From the sequence record SRR20825019_2087: DNA of 64,000 nucleotides; one strand, 5' to 3'. A program made the translations under genes and the position numbers. The notes under the pieces are model-generated. The model saw nothing but the letters and a program-made list of their open reading frames with translations. It did no database searches and was not told where the DNA came from. This document shows, piece after piece, positions 54,923 to 63,944 of the stretch (the stretch's first letter is position 1; the number at the start of each line of letters is the position of its first letter).

Positions 54923-56659
54923 TTAAATTCTACTCTGATACGTGAACAAATCGTAGTAACGTCCTTTGAGATCAATCAGTTCTTGGTGTTTTCCGCGCTC
55001 AACGATGTTCCCTTCTTCGATCACTAAAATCTGGTCGGCTTGTTGGATCGTACTCAAACGGTGTGCGATTACAAACGTCGTTCGATTTTTCATCAACACA
55101 TTCAAACTTTTCTGAATAAACGATTCGCTCTCTGTATCTAAGTTCGATGTTGCTTCGTCGAGAATAATGATTTTCGGATCTGCCAATAATGCTCGCGCAA
55201 TTGAAATTCGTTGACGTTGTCCACCCGAAAGTTTCACTCCCCGTTCTCCAATGACTGTGTCGAGCCCATCATCAAAACGATCCGTAAACTCCTTTACATA
55301 AGCTCCTTCAACCGCCATCAGAAGTTGTTCTTCCGTTGCATTTGGTCGTGGGAACATAATATTTTCGCGAATTGTTCCTTCAAAAAGGAAATCGTCTTGA
55401 AGTACCACACCGAGCATTCTTCGGTAGCTGGTTAAGCTCACCTTCGACAAATCTTTTCCGTCTATGGTAACTGTTCCGTCTATCGGGTTCAAGAATGTTG
55501 CTGCCAATCCAGCGATCGTAGATTTACCTGATCCAGAAGAACCGACCAATGCCGTGACTGATCCCATTGGCGCATCGAATGAAATTCCGTGAAGAACTTC
55601 CTTGCTTTCTTCGTAGCTAAACGACACATTATCGAATCGAATATCTCCTTTTATCTCATCCAAAACGATTGTTCTTACTTCTGGATTGTCTTCATCTTCC
55701 ATCTCCATTAGCTCTTGCGTACGGTCTAATCCCGCCATTGCTTCACTGATTTGACTACCAATATTGCTCATTTGAACAATTGGTGCGACCATAAATCCAA
55801 GGAACATGATAAAGGATATGAACTCCCCTTTGTCCATTGTTCCATCCATCATAAAATAAGAACCAAACGCCATGATTCCGGCCGTTGTAATTCCTAACAA
55901 AAGTGTGCTTGAACTAGAAATAAAGGCGGTAGCTGTTAAACTCTTTTTAACGTTTTCAAAAAGACGGTTAACCCCTTCTGCAAAGGATTTGTTTTCTTGT
56001 TCTTCCGCGTTGAAAGCTTTGATGATCCGAACACCGTTCAACGTTTCTGTGAGTCTACCTGTTACTTCGGCATTAATTTTCCCTCTATTTTTAAATATTG
56101 GACGAATTCTTCCAAATGCTTTGAGCATTAATAATCCAAAAATTGCCACGGGAATTACTGTAAATAAAGTCATCCAAGGATTTAAATAGATCAGCGCACC
56201 CAAGGCAACTAACGCTGTGAGCGATCCACCGACCAATTGTACTAGTCCCGTTCCAATAATGTTTCTAACTCCTTCAACATCCGACATCACGCGAGAAACC
56301 AATGCTCCCGATTTGTTGTTGTCAAAGAAACTAATCGGCAATTTCAACAATTTTCGTTGTACATCCGTTCTCATTTCGGAAATCATTCGCTGTGCTTCGA
56401 CACTGAGTAATTTCGTCAGTAAAAAAGAAGAGATGGATTGTATCGCAATAGCCACAACAATGGCAACCACAATGATTATTAACATGTTGTAATCCTTGGC
56501 TTTTACAACATCATCTATTAAATAAGGAGTTACCGCTGGGATAAGCAATCCAGATAAACTGCGAAAGACGATTAAAACTAAACCGAGGGAAACTATTTTT
56601 TTGCGTGGCCAAATATATTCTTTAAATGCCCACGAAAAGGATACTTTTTTATTGCTCAT
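54923..56659 (-). CDS. ABC exporter, fused permease/ATPase (MsbA/Sav1866-like)
   Basis: 6-TM domain, GSSGSGKS, LSGGQRQR, ILDEATS.LD, IAHRLST; no C39 peptidase domain. Confidence 0.95.
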   Translation of the reverse strand: MSNKKVSFSWAFKEYIWPRKKIVSLGLVLIVFRSLSGLLIPAVTPYLIDDVVKAKDYNMLIIIVVAIVVAIAIQSISSFLLTKLLSVEAQRMISEMRTDVQRKLLKLPISFFDNNKSGALVSRVMSDVEGVRNIIGTGLVQLVGGSLTALVALGALIYLNPWMTLFTVIPVAIFGLLMLKAFGRIRPIFKNRGKINAEVTGRLTETLNGVRIIKAFNAEEQENKSFAEGVNRLFENVKKSLTATAFISSSSTLLLGITTAGIMAFGSYFMMDGTMDKGEFISFIMFLGFMVAPIVQMSNIGSQISEAMAGLDRTQELMEMEDEDNPEVRTIVLDEIKGDIRFDNVSFSYEESKEVLHGISFDAPMGSVTALVGSSGSGKSTIAGLAATFLNPIDGTVTIDGKDLSKVSLTSYRRMLGVVLQDDFLFEGTIRENIMFPRPNATEEQLLMAVEGAYVKEFTDRFDDGLDTVIGERGVKLSGGQRQRISIARALLADPKIIILDEATSNLDTESESFIQKSLNVLMKNRTTFVIAHRLSTIQQADQILVIEEGNIVERGKHQELIDLKGRYYDLFTYQSRI

Positions 56660-56768: not shown

Positions 56769-57560
56769 TCAAGCACAATTCATCTCCATTTTTGCGTAAA
56801 AACCACTTTCGGAGTCGTCATATTCTATACTTCCTTGCATTACTGAAAGTCTGCTTTCAATATTCTTTAGACCTATTCCTTTTTTTTGCGCGAGAATTTC
56901 GGGTTTAAATCCACTTCCGTTATCCTTGTATGACAGAGTGAGGATGTCAGTCTCGGAATTTGAAGTAAGCTCGATATTGACCTCTGTCGCTTCCGAATGC
57001 TTCAACGTATTCGTGATTAGTTCCTGAAGGATTCTATAGATGTTTAGTTCCTCAGACTTCCCTATTCGACTAACTAGATTCGTTTCAAATCGGCATGTTA
57101 TTCGGCCCGTATCTTGCACCGTTTCCAATAGGCTTCGAATCGCTTCAACTAATCCTAGTTTGCTTAGCACAATCGGACTCAAATTTTGAGAAATCGTTCG
57201 TGTGCTATGGATCATTCCTTCGAAAAATGAATTCATCTTGCCTTTGATCCTTTCCAACTCCGACTCTTCCAAAGAAGTGGAAACTTGCTGAAAGTAAATC
57301 TTGGTGGTAGTTAACATTGCTCCAATATTATCATGGAGATCCTTTGAAATTCGGGATCGTTCACTTTCTTGACTCTCAATCGATGCTTTTAAAAGTTCCG
57401 TTTGATACTCGGACTCTAACAGCTGTTTTTCCTTGTGTTGGATCAACAATCTTCGATGATAAATCACAAAAAACATAATTACCGCTGCCGATAGCAAGAC
57501 AACAATGAGCATTGCTATGATAATTACTTGCAACTCTATTTCTTGACTGGTTGAATCCAT
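56769..57560 (-). CDS. Single-TM HisKA_3 (NarX/DegS-like) histidine kinase lacking a sensor domain
   Basis: QE.ER.RISKDLHDNIG, YRILQE...N.LKHS.A, DNG.GF, GIGL.NI..R; start M20 (57560). Confidence 0.92.
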   Translation of the reverse strand: MDSTSQEIELQVIIIAMLIVVLLSAAVIMFFVIYHRRLLIQHKEKQLLESEYQTELLKASIESQESERSRISKDLHDNIGAMLTTTKIYFQQVSTSLEESELERIKGKMNSFFEGMIHSTRTISQNLSPIVLSKLGLVEAIRSLLETVQDTGRITCRFETNLVSRIGKSEELNIYRILQELITNTLKHSEATEVNIELTSNSETDILTLSYKDNGSGFKPEILAQKKGIGLKNIESRLSVMQGSIEYDDSESGFYAKMEMNCA

Positions 57561-58183
57561 ATTGCGAGTGTATAAAAAATGATTAGAATAATATTTACAA
57601 CTGCGTGTAGTCCCCAAATTGCATAACTGTCCTCCAGCGACAATTTGAGTGCATTATTGATGTAAAAAAGGATCAGATTTCCAGAGAAATAAATGAGTAA
57701 TCCTGAACTAACCCAAAACAACGGATTTTTCTCCACTCTCGAATATTCGGGTTCTCTCAATAACGAGTAAAAAGATGCCAAAACAATAAGAATCATTGAT
57801 ACTGAGAGAACCGTGATTGAAATCGAGTTGAATTCATAAAAACCTTGATAGAATAAGGAAACCGAGATCGAAAAAAGTGAGAATGCAGTTCCAAGCAATA
57901 CCACACCAAGTGTTGAGATTAGTTTAGAAAGCATTTTGTGAAAAATGTTCAACAGCAATAGGAACTCAACAACCGTGTAGACATGATAAATTGGAAGATT
58001 GTTCACTTCCTTATACCACAGCACATTTGTCGCGATTTCAACCACAAAGATTACCAAAAGAAGTAACGCTAACTTTTTTTGAAGTGCTGTGAGTCTAGCA
58101 AAAAAGACCAATGAAAAAAACAGCGGAACAACTACCGAAAAAGCAGAAGTCAACCGAAGAATTTCAAAAAAACCTTTGCTCAT
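57536..58183 (-). CDS. Multi-pass (6-7 TM) membrane protein, probable accessory receptor of the kinase
   Basis: Hydrophobic helices, NNL.IYH.Y...EF and P.FW...GLL.YF motifs; overlaps both neighbours. Confidence 0.8.
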   Translation of the reverse strand: MSKGFFEILRLTSAFSVVVPLFFSLVFFARLTALQKKLALLLLVIFVVEIATNVLWYKEVNNLPIYHVYTVVEFLLLLNIFHKMLSKLISTLGVVLLGTAFSLFSISVSLFYQGFYEFNSISITVLSVSMILIVLASFYSLLREPEYSRVEKNPLFWVSSGLLIYFSGNLILFYINNALKLSLEDSYAIWGLHAVVNIILIIFYTLAIWIQPVKK

Positions 58184-58926
58184 TAATTCTGCGCTTCATT
58201 CCTTCTTCCACATGTAGGCGGACAAGGGCTAGAATACTCGATAAATGTTTCATTTTTTGTCACCTCAATTACACCATGCTGAGCAATATCCTTTTCACTT
58301 TCAACATGTTTAATTCCTAAAATTGGCGTGAATGAAATCATGCTATTGTCCATCATTTTATTCATATCGACACCTGGATACAGCATAATTCCGTTTACTG
58401 ATCCACGTCCTCTAATTTCATTAATATGTTTAATCATTGTCTCTCCGATTTCGAAAAAATGTACCCTAACCATTTCCCCGGTCAACGAAGCGTCGACTTT
58501 CTGCTTTGCTAAAAACAAATCATCCAAGAGACTTGTTTCCATGACGTGCCAATTTCTAGTGATCATTTCTTTAAAAATTCCAGGGACGATATCAGAAAGT
58601 GGGTGAACATCTGCTTTGCCTGGAGCTTCAAACCCACTCAACGGAAGGTAAACGATCTCCTTTGATTCTATAAAATGTATTTCGAGAATAGGATAGAAAG
58701 TAAACTGCTCAGCCTGCGGGTTGGATTTCAACGCTAGCTGGATGTTAATCAACTTAATCTCCTCCAACGCATTAAACTCAGTTAATACCTCTTGCGACAT
58801 CTCAAAATGATACACGCGTTTGTGCTGATTTGTTCTCGGGCACCATTTATGAAAATGATTTGCGAGTTCCAATACATTAGCCTTCTTCCAATTATCAATA
58901 TCTGCAAAAGCTATTTCATTCTTCAT
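58183..58926 (-). CDS. Hypothetical protein with an internal duplication and C-terminal PCPPTC motif
   Basis: 247 aa, no signal peptide, ends FIEYSSPCPPTCGRRNEAQN; TAATG stop/start overlap with the membrane gene. Confidence 0.8.
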   Translation of the reverse strand: MKNEIAFADIDNWKKANVLELANHFHKWCPRTNQHKRVYHFEMSQEVLTEFNALEEIKLINIQLALKSNPQAEQFTFYPILEIHFIESKEIVYLPLSGFEAPGKADVHPLSDIVPGIFKEMITRNWHVMETSLLDDLFLAKQKVDASLTGEMVRVHFFEIGETMIKHINEIRGRGSVNGIMLYPGVDMNKMMDNSMISFTPILGIKHVESEKDIAQHGVIEVTKNETFIEYSSPCPPTCGRRNEAQN

Positions 58927-58956
58927 TTTTCTTTGTTTAGTTTAGTGACTCTATTT

Positions 58957-59610
58957 CTACGCTGAAATGATGTTTTCCCTTACCGCCTTTAAAACAAGAC
59001 CAGCGGAGTTTCTAACGCCCAATTTGCTCAACAAGGTTTTCCGATATCCTTCTATGGTTCTTACACTTAAAAATAGTCGATCTGCGATTTCTGCAGTCGT
59101 TAGTTCTTCAGCTATAAGCGTGAGAATGCTCATTTCTCGCTCCGTTAATTCGTAGTTATTTCCAATAGAAGGAATTCCCCCCTTTTTTTCTTTCAGTTCT
59201 TTAAGAATCACTGTTGACACAAGTGAATTGATGTACACACCTTCTCGATATGTTCTTACAATTGCTTCTTCGAGTTCATCTTTTCCGGTATCTTTTAACA
59301 AGTACGCATTCGCTCCAATTTCCATCAAGTAAGAAATCATTCGCTCTTCTTTGTGCATTGTAAGGATGATTATTTTAACCTCAGGATACTCTTTCTTAAG
59401 TCGCTTGGTGATTTCAATGCCATCCGTTTCTTCCAGTTCTAAATCGAGGAGAATCACATGCGGAAGTCCTCGAGATAACTCCGAAAATAGTTCCACATCA
59501 TTCATTACATCAAACCTTAATGAAACCAAAGGCATAGTCGCCAAAAGTGACTTTATTCCTTCACGAAATAAGGTGTGATCGTCAACAATTCCTACTTGGA
59601 TTTTCTCCAT
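58957..59610 (-). CDS. NarL/LuxR-family response regulator
   Basis: VDDH.LFREG, LLDL, ILTMH, YLLKD, LTERE..IL...TT.EIA..LFLS.RT.E.YR. Confidence 0.95.
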   Translation of the reverse strand: MEKIQVGIVDDHTLFREGIKSLLATMPLVSLRFDVMNDVELFSELSRGLPHVILLDLELEETDGIEITKRLKKEYPEVKIIILTMHKEERMISYLMEIGANAYLLKDTGKDELEEAIVRTYREGVYINSLVSTVILKELKEKKGGIPSIGNNYELTEREMSILTLIAEELTTAEIADRLFLSVRTIEGYRKTLLSKLGVRNSAGLVLKAVRENIISA

Positions 59611-59693
59611 CTAGCGGTGTTAGGTTTATTTATACAAGTACCAAGTTACTAAAACTGAACAAAAATTCAAGAGGAGCTTTGGGATAAATGCTC

Positions 59694-59762
59694 CCGTATT
59701 TCCCACATTTTCATTTTCCGTAGTTATGGTCTGGTGAGAAGGAGAATTGATCCCAACCTTTG
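59694..59762 (+). promoter_or_regulatory. Tandem imperfect palindromes (putative response-regulator boxes) plus a -7-like element
   Basis: CCGTA-TT-TCCCA (59694-59705), CCGTA-GT-TATGG (59718-59729), 25 nt gap, AACCTTTG (59755-59762). Confidence 0.5.
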
Positions 59763-59835
59763 TAGTGTCATCAATTGACAGGTGGATTCTGAAAAACCTT
59801 TAACAGAGTAGGAACAAAATAATCTAACAACAAAA

Positions 59836-60249
59836 ATGGCAGATCTTAGAAAATTTGTGTGGAGCGGAACCCATGATGGAATGAAAGTCGATGTTTATTC
59901 GGGTTTCCCAAGAGTAGTTATTGGACATGGTGAAGTAAATGAATTGAAGCCACTTTACATTCGCGTTACAGGAACGTTAAATGTTCCGCGGAGAACAGAA
60001 ACGCTCGAAATTATTATGCCGAATGAAAGTGATACAGGGGTGTGTACCCTTGTTATGAGTGGGGTAAGACAGGACAACTGTCCTTATCGTGTACAGGGAA
60101 AGTCTTTATTTATCAAGCATCCTAGTGCTGAAATCAAAATTGACGCAGTCGATAGAAAGTACACTTGGGTAGAAATTTCAGGACTTATTAAATTGGCGTT
60201 TGGCTTGTGGCCACAAGGACATGCAATGACCGAGGAGGATCTCGCGTAG
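59836..60249 (+). CDS. Hypothetical beta-rich protein, 137 aa, no signal peptide
   Basis: Clean ORF with an A-rich Bacteroidota-type initiation region and its own terminator; no family recognised. Confidence 0.75.
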   Translation: MADLRKFVWSGTHDGMKVDVYSGFPRVVIGHGEVNELKPLYIRVTGTLNVPRRTETLEIIMPNESDTGVCTLVMSGVRQDNCPYRVQGKSLFIKHPSAEIKIDAVDRKYTWVEISGLIKLAFGLWPQGHAMTEEDLA

Positions 60250-60360: not shown

Positions 60361-62277
60361 CTATTCGTTTACGGACTTCGCGATCACCCATTTCTTGGTT
60401 CGAACATCTTGATAATTCTGCATTAATTCTTTAAATCGCTGTACTTCATCTTCTCCACTAATGTAGCGTTTGATGACCTTCACGGCATATACATACTGCA
60501 ATACATTCTCAGATTTTTGAAAAACATTCACAGAAATTTCCCCAATATCGTTGGAGAACGTTACCGTAGAAAGATCCTCCGCATTCGAAATTTTGGAGGA
60601 CGCCTGAACAAACACGGAAAAATTCATTTCTTTTAAAAACGGCAGAACCAAGTAATTCCCATACGTTTCATTGAGTTCATCACCCTGATAAAGACCGATT
60701 GGCAGCTCACTTGAAGCATTCATCCAAAAAAGTGAATCTTCGATTTCCGTTATAATTTCTTTAGAAACTTTCTCTCCTTCATACGTTACTTGGTATGGAT
60801 AAAAATCACTCACTTCTTTAGGATCGGGTAGAATTGAATCTTTTGAAATATTCAACTCTTCCAACCAGACCGATTTACTATTGCTTCTCGTTAAAAACGA
60901 ATAATGCCCTGTCAACTGATCTTTTCTACGAACGTTCAATTCTCCACCCTCTTCCCAATTAACGATTACCATTCCATTGTGTCGATTGTCTTTTCTGGTG
61001 CTTTCTGGAAGCGCATATCCACCAGATTGTTCTAGTTCATCTCCCCCAATCATAGTAATAGACTGATTTCCTTCGAGATAATATGGAATTTCATCCAGGT
61101 AATAGAACTTTCCTTCACCACTTGGCGGGAATAAAAAATGTGGTCGATCCAAATCGTCGTAAATCACTAAATAACGATGCGAGAGTTGTTCTAACGAAAC
61201 AAAACCTTGTTCAAATTTTCCATCGAGTAAACTTTTTGTAAATCCACGTTCTGCTTTGATTCCTTTTTCGTCCAGAAACTTTATAATAAAACGCATGAAT
61301 AACACGCCATCTATTTCCTTTCTTTTCAGAAAATCGCTCGATAATTTTAGATACTCTGTGCTTTTGGAGTTATTCCAAGTACATTCTGTTTCAAAAAAGT
61401 TGATGATTTTTTTGAGTTGAATAAGTTTATCATCGCCTGCATACAACACTCCTTCTTGTTCAAAATACTTATGAATCGAAAATGATTTATTGAAATTACT
61501 CGGATAGTTTCTAATCTCTGAATCGTACACTGCTTTGTAATCGATCGTTTCTCCAGGTGTCCATAAAGCATACACAAAACTCGGAGCAGTTGGAGGCAGC
61601 GCGTTGAAAAAATCCGTTTTCATACTTGCAACCCCTGTCTTTTCCCAAGAAACAGTTGGAATTCCCTTTTCTTCTTTCTGAATCGATTTTGGCATATTGT
61701 TCAAAGAGTATGCTGTTAGCTCCAATCGCGACATATTTCTCAAGGTAATTCGAGAATAAAGTGAAGGAATATCATCTTCAAGGTACATCAAATCAGAAAA
61801 GATATATCCCGGCAAATCCACTTGATAGGCAATGTCGATCACATCTCCCACTTGAACTTGAGGATATGCCAGTTGAAACCTTCTGACTGTTCGAGTTCCA
61901 TACTTATTCTTCTCTTTGGAAAACGTCTCAATAATTTGGTTTCCCGCAAGATTAATAATCGTTCCATCTGCTTTTAGCGTTCTAGCGTTAATCATCGCGA
62001 TACTTCCGCTTCCTGTTAGGAACATTTCGTGTTTACTGTATTTCTCGGCTGCTTTCTCAGAGTTAATGTAAATCCGTTTGAAAACGACGATTTGCATTTC
62101 AAACATATCCTTGAAGTCCAAGGTAGTTACGTTGTTCACGAAAAAGGCTGATTCTTTTTTGAGTGAATCTGGCACTTCAACTGGTGAAAACTCAGGCCAG
62201 ATATACGTTCCACGCGCACCATCGGCATGAGATAAAAATGCAAAAAGTAAAATGGTGATTGTCAGGATTGTTTTCAT
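60361..62277 (-). CDS. DUF3857-domain exported protein (transglutaminase-like, apparently non-catalytic)
   Basis: Signal peptide, ARTLK.DG, P.V.VGD.ID..Y; no recognisable GxC catalytic motif. Confidence 0.7.
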   Translation of the reverse strand: MKTILTITILLFAFLSHADGARGTYIWPEFSPVEVPDSLKKESAFFVNNVTTLDFKDMFEMQIVVFKRIYINSEKAAEKYSKHEMFLTGSGSIAMINARTLKADGTIINLAGNQIIETFSKEKNKYGTRTVRRFQLAYPQVQVGDVIDIAYQVDLPGYIFSDLMYLEDDIPSLYSRITLRNMSRLELTAYSLNNMPKSIQKEEKGIPTVSWEKTGVASMKTDFFNALPPTAPSFVYALWTPGETIDYKAVYDSEIRNYPSNFNKSFSIHKYFEQEGVLYAGDDKLIQLKKIINFFETECTWNNSKSTEYLKLSSDFLKRKEIDGVLFMRFIIKFLDEKGIKAERGFTKSLLDGKFEQGFVSLEQLSHRYLVIYDDLDRPHFLFPPSGEGKFYYLDEIPYYLEGNQSITMIGGDELEQSGGYALPESTRKDNRHNGMVIVNWEEGGELNVRRKDQLTGHYSFLTRSNSKSVWLEELNISKDSILPDPKEVSDFYPYQVTYEGEKVSKEIITEIEDSLFWMNASSELPIGLYQGDELNETYGNYLVLPFLKEMNFSVFVQASSKISNAEDLSTVTFSNDIGEISVNVFQKSENVLQYVYAVKVIKRYISGEDEVQRFKELMQNYQDVRTKKWVIAKSVNE

Positions 62278-63944
62278 TTATTCAACTTTATGGGTTTAGC
62301 TATAATTTCTTCCCAACCAGTGATTAATTCATCGTCTTCAAACTCTTTGGTGGAAGCTTTTCTTTGGAGTGGGTACATAAGTTTGATCCGATTCCCTTCA
62401 TTCTGAATCGTGATTGGCTGTTTTGGTTTATCTGCAAACTCCAGTGATTCATTCTGTTGTGAAAGTACAATCACGTTCACGTCTGAATCAAAGAGCGGAT
62501 AAGTATTGTTTTGACAAAGTGCTGTAATTATTGATGGGTTAAGAATGAATGACGGTTCCAATAAAGACTTTGAGCCAATTTTCGAAATCATTGTAGACTT
62601 CATCTGAGTACTTGCTACTAAAACAGCATCTCCTTCAGAAATCGTCAGGCTGTCCACCTTCCACTCGAGGTTTGTTGTATTTCTTAACATTCGTTCGATT
62701 GAGCGTTCAGGATCGTGTTCCTTCTTTGCCATATACTGAAAATAATTGCTCATTTTTCCCTGAGCGTCTATGTTCAAATGTACTTTCGCATTTTCAAGAT
62801 CAACGGTATACGTAAGTTCAACGCCATGAGGGAAAAGAGGCTCTGCGGGTACATCTAAATAATACCCTTCGTGTCTTCCGACTAGAAAAACTTCCGTTCC
62901 CAAAATCTGAATGCTCGGATCTCCAAATCGACAAACTTCTTCTGTTGCATCGAGAAAGAACCATTGATCAGACAATTTCAGTGCGCAAATAGTGTGATTA
63001 GCCGAACCAAGTGCTGGAAAATCGAGCTTTCCTTCTTTAGAATTTGTTCTTGAAATTGCTGAATATGCCTCCATTCCGAATGATCTGTAGAGTGCAGTAA
63101 GCAAAGTCGCCATATCTTTACAATCTCCCAAGCCATTTTGTAAAACCTGTTCGCAATGACGTGGAATAACCGCGTTAATACCATTTTCGACATCGATGTA
63201 ACGAATTTTCTCTTGAACATACGTGAAGCACGCTTCTGCCAATGCTCGTTGATCTCCCAGCTTCGCAATTTCCTTTAATTCCTTCGGAATCACTTGCTCT
63301 GAAATGACCAGTTGCGGATCTATGCGACTTTGAAACCAATCGGAAAAATACTTATTTGGATCAGCAGTTTTTGGATGAATTAAGAACTTCAATATTTCCA
63401 ATGAATCAAAACTCTCCTGTGAAAAGGAAACTTTTCCTTCAAACGACTTATTTAATGAAGTCGTCATCCGCATACTTTCGGGTAATGTGTATTCGTAGGT
63501 ACATCCTTCGGACTCAAAGAATCCTTTTTTAAACATTCGAGAAAGAAAGATCGTGTGTTTATCCTTCGTAGCAAAAACGACTTTAAATTTCATTCCTGCT
63601 GGAATCACGAATCTATAGTATTTTGTTCCTGTAAAGAAGGAATTCCAACTCATCGTTGAAATCGTAAGGTTATCTTTTAAACTAACAGTTTTCCATTTTC
63701 CTTTGCTCCACTCGCTCACTTCTAGCGATTGAAGTTCAGATAATTCGTTGACAGGAAATCCGATTCGCTCACCAAACAGCGAGGTGTTTTCTCCTTCAAT
63801 TTCAATGCGAGATTGATAATTGTTTGCATCCAAAACGGTATAAGAATGAGATTCGCGCGAAATGGTCAATCCTTCCTCCGAAAAGGAAAAAAACGACATT
63901 AGCAAAAGCAAATGAGTGAGAAGGGTTATTCTAAGCACAACCAA
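62274..63944 (-). CDS. Transglutaminase-like domain protein
   Basis: VQ.KIRY, GDCKD.A.LL, NH.I, FLDAT (Cys-His-Asp triad); ATGA overlap with the partner gene. Confidence 0.85.
   Translation of the reverse strand: MVVLRITLLTHLLLLMSFFSFSEEGLTISRESHSYTVLDANNYQSRIEIEGENTSLFGERIGFPVNELSELQSLEVSEWSKGKWKTVSLKDNLTISTMSWNSFFTGTKYYRFVIPAGMKFKVVFATKDKHTIFLSRMFKKGFFESEGCTYEYTLPESMRMTTSLNKSFEGKVSFSQESFDSLEILKFLIHPKTADPNKYFSDWFQSRIDPQLVISEQVIPKELKEIAKLGDQRALAEACFTYVQEKIRYIDVENGINAVIPRHCEQVLQNGLGDCKDMATLLTALYRSFGMEAYSAISRTNSKEGKLDFPALGSANHTICALKLSDQWFFLDATEEVCRFGDPSIQILGTEVFLVGRHEGYYLDVPAEPLFPHGVELTYTVDLENAKVHLNIDAQGKMSNYFQYMAKKEHDPERSIERMLRNTTNLEWKVDSLTISEGDAVLVASTQMKSTMISKIGSKSLLEPSFILNPSIITALCQNNTYPLFDSDVNVIVLSQQNESLEFADKPKQPITIQNEGNRIKLMYPLQRKASTKEFEDDELITGWEEIIAKPIKLNK

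Follow-up and report, generated by a model that had tools for sequence, protein, structure and literature searches.

How does a two-component kinase receive its signal when it carries no sensor domain, and what do the accessory proteins encoded beside it contribute? We met this question in a 64,000-nucleotide (nt) stretch of DNA from sequence record SRR20825019_2087 (the whole stretch is called the window below), where the open reading frame (ORF) table and the sequence itself reveal four co-directional minus-strand genes (Table 1). They encode a NarL/LuxR-type response regulator, a 247-amino acid (aa) protein with a conserved Cys-Pro tail (the tail protein), a membrane protein with seven transmembrane helices (the 7TM protein), and a HisKA_3 histidine kinase that, judged from its sequence, has no sensor domain of its own. 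The cassette is a member of a widespread, unnamed signaling module of the Bacteroidota. The pair of tail protein and 7TM protein is its constant unit, and loci differ in the class of kinase and in where the regulator gene lies. We consider it about an even bet (probability roughly 0.5) that this pair forms the input device of an intramembrane-coupled kinase, with the tail as its docking and specificity element.

The genes are tightly packed. A 30-nt gap separates the regulator gene from the tail gene, the stop codon of the latter overlaps the 7TM start as TAATG, and the 25 nt shared by the 7TM and kinase genes point to translational coupling. An initial annotation of the window, made from the letters alone, had described the same layout and junctions, and both stand as described. 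The kinase reading frame stays open back to a TTG at 57617. Pfam matched neither of the two middle proteins, and NCBIfam agrees. The regulator has a receiver domain and a C-terminal GerE/LuxR helix-turn-helix and thus belongs to the NarL/LuxR (FixJ) type.

The kinase matched HisKA_3 (E = 7.5e-06; 26.8 bits against a cutoff of 24) and HATPase_c (E = 4.8e-11), which places it in the HisKA_3 family. Membrane segments were called by a hydropathy scan with a threshold of 1.6, and the kinase has a single one, beginning at residue 12 with 11 residues ahead of it; the annotation's single segment preceded by about 10 residues, with no sensor, was accurate. The protein consists of the 11-residue stub, the membrane helix (residues 12–33), a coiled linker, the phospho-accepting His76, and the ATPase domain. 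Its 11 external residues, too few for an extracytoplasmic sensor domain, are of the kind that defines intramembrane-sensing kinases, but it has one helix where those usually have two. H76, compared over 37 sequences, and D77 are invariant, and conservation is 0.79 in the membrane helix, 0.77 in the dimerization and histidine phosphotransfer domain, and 0.66 in the ATPase domain. The overlap of the 7TM and kinase genes is itself retained, measuring 19–34 nt at all 28 loci where it was determined and exactly 25 nt at 19 of them.

We found 20 close relatives of the 247-aa protein, mostly from Aquimarina, and a scan at one genome per species yielded 42 loci from Aquimarina, Kordia, a Flavobacteriales metagenome-assembled genome (MAG), and a Crocinitomicaceae MAG. 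Gene order at these loci was read by tblastn with the four window proteins, and the ORFs are mechanical calls starting at the first start codon after a stop. The tail gene was followed by the 7TM gene on the same strand in 42 of 42 loci, the kinase came next in 41 (the exception, L002, reaches a contig edge), and a regulator gene was present in all 42. As in the window, it precedes the other genes in L001 and L002; at the remaining 40 loci it lies downstream. The expectation that the four genes form a conserved unit is supported. Subfamily scans recovered the order of tail gene, 7TM gene, and overlapping kinase gene in three of three Roseivirga loci at 23–30% identity, and in seven of seven Saprospiraceae loci as far as the contigs extend, six of these with a divergent regulator upstream; the same order of tail, 7TM, and kinase genes occurs in further Roseivirga paralogues and in genome G137.

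The prevalence of the two families was assessed in 401 Bacteroidota genomes drawn evenly from the phylum. The 7TM profile matched 64 of them, often several times per genome, and the two-repeat tail profile matched 2. At the best 18 new 7TM loci, the directly upstream ORF (118–250 aa) ended in a PCP-type tail in 17 cases, and the 1.5-kb flanks contained a HisKA_3 kinase in 14 and a regulator in 12. Forty further 7TM loci had a Cys-Pro-tailed ORF directly upstream in 27 cases and a HisKA_3 kinase directly downstream in 27. Over all inspected loci, a tailed ORF preceded the 7TM gene in 44 of 58, spanning very distant lineages. The annotation had mentioned similar CPPxC-tailed genes beside regulator and kinase pairs in other Bacteroidota; the loci from Flavobacteriales, Roseivirga, Saprospiraceae, and the sampled genomes bear this out.

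Six 7TM loci without a HisKA_3 kinase were informative about what the pair is connected to. In five of them the overlapping downstream gene encodes a one-helix PAS-HisKA-HATPase kinase of 543–667 aa, and in the sixth it encodes a 408-aa product with a HATPase_c match, a weak PAS match, and none to HisKA. A receiver domain is present in one of the six, and both loci that were checked have a LuxR-type regulator downstream. At L108 no kinase adjoins the 7TM gene. That the kinase class changes while the tail protein and 7TM protein stay together supports the pair as a unit.

The distribution also bears on a different role for the pair. The regulator might have the tail protein, by itself or together with the 7TM protein, as an effector or product that is simply co-transcribed, like the stress-response genes of some envelope-stress operons, and the 7TM protein with the kinase, or the kinase alone, would be the whole sensor. 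An upstream position in the operon is compatible with this; many more of the sampled genomes have the 7TM family than the two-repeat tail family, and 14 of the 58 7TM loci had no recognizable tailed ORF. The pairing at the other 44, across distant lineages and two kinase classes, speaks against it, as do the TAATG or ATGA coupling of the tail gene to the 7TM gene, the identity of tails within a cassette (below), and the finding of no enzyme or stress-protein signature in the tail proteins. We regard an effector role as improbable. The cassette flanks contained no conserved regulon or effector genes: they are kept only within Aquimarina, where they consist of housekeeping genes, and differ between genera.

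The 215-aa protein, described in the annotation as having six or seven membrane segments, has exactly seven by hydropathy. Its AlphaFold2 (AF2) model is a seven-helix bundle (mean predicted local distance difference test [pLDDT] 91; predicted template modeling score [pTM] 0.88). Foldseek with this model gave no significant E value. In VIA, which is independent of Foldseek, the best 50 matches were all G-protein-coupled receptors (GPCRs), designed GPCR-like folds, or microbial rhodopsins (Z 10.7–13.9, 187–213 residues aligned, root-mean-square deviation about 4 Å), with the rhodopsins Kin4B8, NM-R3, and KR2 at Z 11.4–12.4. For helical bundles such Z values may reflect only a common arrangement, and we therefore claim topology and not homology; at that level, the model assigns the protein a GPCR/rhodopsin-type 7TM topology with high confidence. 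Lysine and arginine counts place the N terminus outside and loops 1–2, 3–4, and 5–6 and the C terminus inside, and the same topology was obtained for 18 distant relatives. Helix 7 (residues 187–210) contains no lysine, so the retinal-binding lysine of microbial rhodopsins is missing. The window protein had no match to 7TMR-DISM (PF07695), and among 47 family members one matched that model weakly over its full length (E = 0.06; 13.7 bits against a cutoff of 29). A search for fused 7TM-kinase proteins or longer 7TM forms found none, which by the tool's own statement is weak evidence. The modeled topology and the retained overlap with the kinase gene make the receptor role that the annotation had proposed for this protein plausible.

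Polar residues within the helices are conserved in the close family (E49, H67, H193, and N197). These residues, the invariant Cys near the C terminus of the tail protein, and the tight pairing of the two genes would also fit an enzyme that modifies or cleaves the tail, for example by lipidation or CAAX-like trimming, with the tail protein as its substrate. The wider family does not favor this: among 63 members, N62 is kept in 52 and H67 is His in 38, while the H193 position is Asn in 27, and neither E49, H193, nor N197 is conserved. Pfam searches at E up to 1 linked none of the 47 members to a membrane protease or transferase family, receptors and rhodopsins make up all of the 50 best fold matches with no enzyme among them, and the distance from the Cys to the C terminus varies from 4 to more than 30 residues. 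An enzymatic role for the 7TM protein is, on this evidence, the most improbable of the readings considered here. An Rce1/CPBP-like protease, a family marked by Glu, His, and His-x3-Asn motifs, was considered specifically and found no support: none of the 47 members matched it in Pfam, H193 and N197 are unconserved in the wider family, and the family is missing from the 50 best fold matches, an absence that does not by itself exclude it. A bis-His heme site in the 7TM protein was likewise dropped, given Asn at the H193 position in the 27 distant members.

At L088, L101, L118, and L085, two or three tandem 7TM genes precede a single kinase gene, which suggests hetero-oligomeric 7TM assemblies in some genomes. 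L029 contains a further stretch that matches just the C-terminal third of the 7TM protein, located after the inserted lipoprotein gene described below and just before the kinase gene; from its sequence it looks like a remnant preserving the overlap with the kinase start. In L020, from Aquimarina spongiae, the kinase match stays open to the end of the regulator, 486 codons without a stop; either a kinase-regulator fusion or an artefact of match extension could account for this.

The tail protein belongs to no described family. The window copy matched nothing in Pfam or NCBIfam, and Pfam was without a match for all 130 family members; PADLOC had none for the accessory proteins. Sequence searches of the PDB with three profiles were empty in two cases and gave four chains at E = 0.69–1.8 in the third, with no usable match, and the tail-family profile matched no PDB chain. 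ESM Atlas matches were unnamed Bacteroidota clusters only. The AF2 model (pLDDT 76; pTM 0.78) has two similar alpha/beta halves and a disordered tail, and a Foldseek search with it reached E = 0.035 at best. In a wide VIA search the best Z, to halves of DNA-clamp-like proteins, was 4.5, below the level that the tool regards as meaningful, and no fold was assigned. The halves themselves are clearly related: hhalign matched the N-terminal to the C-terminal half with a probability of 98.7% (E = 3.4e-16), so that the protein consists of a tandemly duplicated domain of ~100 aa, in which W13, F25, and R37 correspond to W126, F138, and R154. Repeat B with the tail matched the single-repeat tail proteins of other cassettes (97.2%; E = 4.1e-11; 119 columns), and one repeat plus tail is the commoner version. 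A profile search of 1.84 billion cluster representatives returned 152 tail-family proteins at E up to 0.001. The Roseivirga-type subfamily (alignment A4) and many distant representatives have an invariant W-x-x-C-D near the N terminus, providing a third conserved Cys, which is absent from the clade of the window protein.

The window protein ends in ...IEYSSPCPPTCGRRNEAQN, where residues 240–247 are a variable extension past the conserved tail. In the alignment of 130 sequences, with a mean column identity of 14%, the only invariant positions are W126, C235, and P236, while P234 and C239 are conserved in at least 90%; the conservation of the tail is far beyond chance. The family consensus is aromatic-acidic-aromatic-x-x-P-C-P-x-x-C. 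Among the 42 orthologous loci, 40 read PCPPTC, across Aquimarina and Kordia, the others being PCPPC (L002) and PCPSTC (L039), and in the alignment of the 20 close relatives the tail is nearly unchanged. The annotation had singled out the PCPPTC tail of the window protein, and a tail of CPPxC type turns out to be the hallmark of the family. A C-x(2-4)-C pattern lies within the last 20 residues of 137 of 146 new family representatives; of the nine exceptions, six are C-terminally incomplete fragments, in two the second Cys comes five residues later, and the last has PSPP. Conservation of the prolines equals that of the Cys, with P104 invariant. Being the best-conserved part of a family with 14% identity and disordered when alone (pLDDT below 50 in the monomer model), the tail is typical of a short docking motif.

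The variants of the tail follow the cassettes. Six cassettes bear two or three tail proteins, and in each of them these proteins share one C-P-x-x-C core; in all nine genomes with at least two tailed cassettes (G001, G002, G075, G087, G089, G183, G191, G337, and G401), the cores differ between cassettes. One Roseivirga genome has at least four cassettes, with the tails CPSTC, CPPFC, CPTNC, and CPPTC. Five Aquimarina loci contain an extra gene between the 7TM and kinase genes, encoding a lipoprotein of ~237 aa with a lipoprotein signal followed by acidic residues; hhalign aligns it with the 247-aa family over the last 73 columns only (94.9%), and it ends in the same tail as the 247-aa-type protein of its locus. 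At L039 the two can hardly be aligned elsewhere, yet both read PCPSTC. The second cassette of Aquimarina litoralis (G001; locus L057) has three consecutive tail proteins that all end in PCPNTC (a 245-aa lipoprotein, a 214-aa signal-anchored protein, and a signal-less one of 140 aa), and then the 7TM (entered by a 1-nt ATGA overlap), kinase, and regulator genes. Cores that are the same within and different between cassettes are the pattern expected for a docking motif with specificity residues. The 140-aa protein has an additional CPDNC near its N terminus.

A tail with an invariant Cys followed by an invariant Pro could be conserved for its chemistry instead. In this alternative, the Cys would be oxidized, bind a soft metal (such as copper or zinc), or ligate heme by way of the Cys-Pro dipeptide, and the change would be passed to the 7TM protein and the kinase. 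Cys-Pro is a heme-regulatory motif, CxxxC binds copper in Sco proteins, and HisKA_3 kinases with several transmembrane helices sense heme together with NarL-type regulators in corynebacteria. Besides C235 and P236, the second Cys is present, 1–6 residues after the first, in 39 of 44 tail proteins, and the C-x(2-4)-C statistics above, with fragments as the majority of exceptions, fit as well. Five of the 44, however, have the first Cys only, and look-alikes in the position of the tail protein keep the prolines and replace the first Cys by Val or Ser (PVPP in L123, and similarly in L084, L119, and L120), losses that argue against obligatory two-thiol chemistry. The equal conservation of the prolines, the lack of any further conserved Cys or His in the 247-aa protein of the window clade, and the variability of the H67 and H193 positions, by which a bis-His heme site is not a feature of the 7TM family, point in the same direction. 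We retain a Cys-bound ligand (a metal, heme, an oxidant, or a quinone) as the main rival because its occurrence on either side of the membrane would account for a tail common to exported and non-exported proteins; it is nevertheless unlikely. Sensing chemistry could also coexist with docking. The annotation had offered, as one option, a redox or metal switch that docks on the receptor; of its two components docking fits the data best, and thiol chemistry may also take part.

The localization of the tail proteins is divided. The hydropathy maximum of the window protein is 0.73, with no segment reaching the threshold and no signal peptide. Judged by hydropathy threshold and by eye, 22 of the 44 tail proteins (plus one uncertain case) have a signal peptide, anchor, or lipobox; the others, that of the window among them, have none. 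The other option of the annotation, a released, disulfide-closed cyclic quorum peptide, fares poorly on these data. In such an Agr/Com-like scheme, the tail would be cleaved, cyclized, exported, and sensed outside by the 7TM protein, with the folded part as a large leader. The conserved polar positions of the 7TM protein do face the periplasm, about half of the wider-family tail proteins are exported, tail variants are cassette-specific, and an ABC exporter gene follows the window cassette by 110 nt. This exporter is MsbA-like (ABC_membrane and ABC_tran domains), its distance being counted from the kinase stop, and it is not kept beside the cassettes elsewhere. Across the cassettes, with flanks that vary by genus, no processing peptidase, cyclase, or dedicated exporter gene is conserved. 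The window protein lacks a signal peptide, both of its repeats are conserved as folded domains, PCPPTC is near-invariant between genera, and the second Cys is dispensable in 5 of 44. Agr-type systems comprise an AgrB peptidase, a short AgrD precursor, a multi-helix HPK10 kinase, and a LytTR regulator; Pfam searches of the four window proteins gave only Response_reg/GerE-type and HisKA_3/HATPase-type matches, with none to AgrB, AgrD, or LytTR components. A released peptide is thus very improbable and is the reading that fits the data least.

We return to the pair as an input device. The 7TM protein would perceive or relay a stimulus at the membrane and set the activity of the kinase by intramembrane helix–helix contact. 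Accessory membrane proteins control intramembrane-sensing kinases by such contacts, as sensory rhodopsin does for its transducer, and helix–helix coupling is the most economical proposal because the kinase is sensor-less, its single helix is conserved, and so is the overlap of the two genes. The tail protein would be the dedicated partner, its proline-stiffened Cys tail docking on the 7TM-kinase complex, its two variable tail residues insulating paralogous cassettes within one genome, and its folded repeats carrying whatever the protein senses. The LuxR-type regulator would deliver the transcriptional output. We infer the physical contacts and the direction of control, and the docking arrangement of the three-protein sensor is less probable than the input role as a whole, at somewhat under even odds.

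Several observations weigh against this proposal. Exported and non-exported tail proteins both occur while all 7TM partners share one topology, and a single docking face cannot serve both. Periplasmic loops were no better conserved in the 7TM partners of exported tail proteins, nor cytoplasmic loops in those of non-exported ones, so that this comparison does not locate a docking face, and the best-conserved polar positions of the 7TM protein (N61, N62, and H67) are periplasmic, yet the tail protein of the window is cytoplasmic. The 14 inspected loci at which no tailed ORF was found upstream count here as well. Identical tails within a cassette could result from gene conversion and not from selection, and upstream genes in a regulator's operon can be effectors and not inputs.

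A more specific possibility combines a protein-borne ligand with a GPCR-fold receptor: the Cys peptide, remaining on its carrier, would be read by the 7TM protein and the signal relayed within the membrane to the one-helix kinase. The variable tail residues would then act as a barcode separating up to four or five parallel channels per genome. We regard this as rather unlikely, somewhat more so than a Cys-bound ligand. If it is true, and the carrier is a surface lipoprotein or is released by damaged cells, the module would serve Bacteroidota as a self or kin signal that depends on contact or lysis.

The module resembles several known systems in part. The LiaFSR-type intramembrane-sensing systems of Firmicutes likewise combine a sensor-less HisKA_3 kinase with a NarL regulator and depend on a co-encoded accessory. 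In the module, by contrast, neither accessory matches a Pfam or NCBIfam model, so that no LiaF-type accessory is recognized, the kinase has one helix and not two and scores 93.9 bits with the Strep_LiaS model against a cutoff of 450, its partner in the membrane is a bundle of seven helices, a soluble tail protein is added, and the phylum is the Bacteroidota. SaePQRS of Staphylococcus aureus also has four genes: besides a regulator and a kinase whose external loop is minimal, they encode a membrane protein and a small accessory that is sometimes a lipoprotein, and these accessories probably act in a complex with the kinase. Its kinase and regulator are of another class, however, no sequence relation was detected, and the 7TM fold and Cys-Pro tail have no counterpart there. 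Sensory rhodopsin II signals laterally from a seven-helix receptor to a separate protein, HtrII, that controls a histidine kinase, whereas the 7TM protein lacks the helix-7 lysine and its partner would be the kinase itself. The 7TMR-DISM proteins are bacterial 7TM modules that feed histidine kinases and other outputs, but there the 7TM part is fused to the output and to an extracellular domain, and in the module it stands alone. Agr and ComQXPA co-encode a Cys-containing polypeptide, a membrane protein, a kinase, and a regulator, with ComP and ComA being of HisKA_3 and NarL type as in the module; they differ in that the polypeptide of the module is a folded protein of 120–290 aa, without a processing enzyme and with a tail conserved across genera, and in that its kinase has no multi-helix receptor. 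A full-text literature search found no description of the module. What is new is a two-component system with a modular two-protein input device, neither accessory family of which is in the curated models.

The surroundings of the window cassette are listed with its features in Table 1. The annotation had placed a promoter at 59694–59835, which is unconfirmed: a sigma-70 scan gave no minus-strand site there. The sole Bacteroidota-type –7-like box found near the regulator start is TAACTTGG, ~30 nt before the start codon, a possible promoter element by pattern match to the –7 consensus of the phylum. The divergent 137-aa ORF beside the regulator has no family match; a relative with 41–44% identity adjoins the regulator in L001 and L002, there on the cassette strand, and it is missing from the remaining loci. 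Upstream of the cassette region lies an overlapping pair of large genes, one for a DUF3857/DUF3858 protein (638 aa) and the other for a transglutaminase-like protein (556 aa).

Table 1. Features of the cassette, its surroundings, and selected related loci. Positions refer to the window unless a locus is named.
Feature	Positions	Strand	Basis
NarL/LuxR-type response regulator, 217 aa	58957-59610	-	Pfam Response_reg 5.5e-22, GerE 8.2e-15
Possible Bacteroidota –7 promoter box TAACTTGG	59641-59648	-	Pattern match
PCP-tail protein, 247 aa, soluble, two tandem repeats and tail	58183-58926	-	hhalign, AF2 model
Repeat A of tail protein, residues 1-108	58603-58926	-	Aligns with repeat B
Repeat B of tail protein, residues 109-229	58240-58602	-	Aligns with single-repeat tail proteins
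Conserved tail E-Y-S-S-P-C-P-P-T-C, residues 230-239	58210-58239	-	Alignment of 130 sequences
Stand-alone seven-helix membrane protein, 215 aa	57536-58183	-	Hydropathy, AF2 model
7TM/kinase gene overlap, 25 nt	57536-57560	-	Sequence read
Sensor-less HisKA_3 kinase (predicted), 263 aa from ATG at 57560	56769-57560	-	Pfam HisKA_3, HATPase_c
Kinase membrane helix	57462-57527	-	Hydropathy
MsbA-like ABC exporter	54923-56659	-	ABC_membrane, ABC_tran
Divergent 137-aa ORF	59836-60249	+	
Overlapping large genes	60361-63944	-	
Extra lipoprotein gene, L007	7494-8207		
Extra lipoprotein gene, L016	7500-8216		
Extra lipoprotein gene, L029	7640-8362		
Extra lipoprotein gene, L031	7454-8158		
Extra lipoprotein gene, L039	7681-8397		
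Second cassette of A. litoralis, L057	5609-9879		
Tandem 7TM genes and kinase, L088	2757-5132		
Tandem 7TM genes and kinase, L101	2771-4118		
Tandem 7TM genes and kinase, L118	2817-4238		
Tandem 7TM genes and kinase, L085	1498-2737		
Kinase match open to regulator end, L020	7347-8804		
Partial 7TM match, L029	8402-8653		

Sensor-less two-component kinases are a long-standing puzzle, to which the module seems to give an answer in the form of a separate two-protein input device. Its 7TM family occurs in about one in six of the sampled Bacteroidota genomes, many of which have several copies, and is connected to kinases of two classes. One protein of the device has the fold type of eukaryotic GPCRs and microbial rhodopsins, and the other bears a short motif that is among the most conserved ones seen in this phylum. 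Once the stimulus and the function of the tail are defined, they would introduce bacterial receptors of a new class, help to study signaling in marine and gut Bacteroidota, and supply naturally insulated receptor-tail pairs for synthetic circuits.

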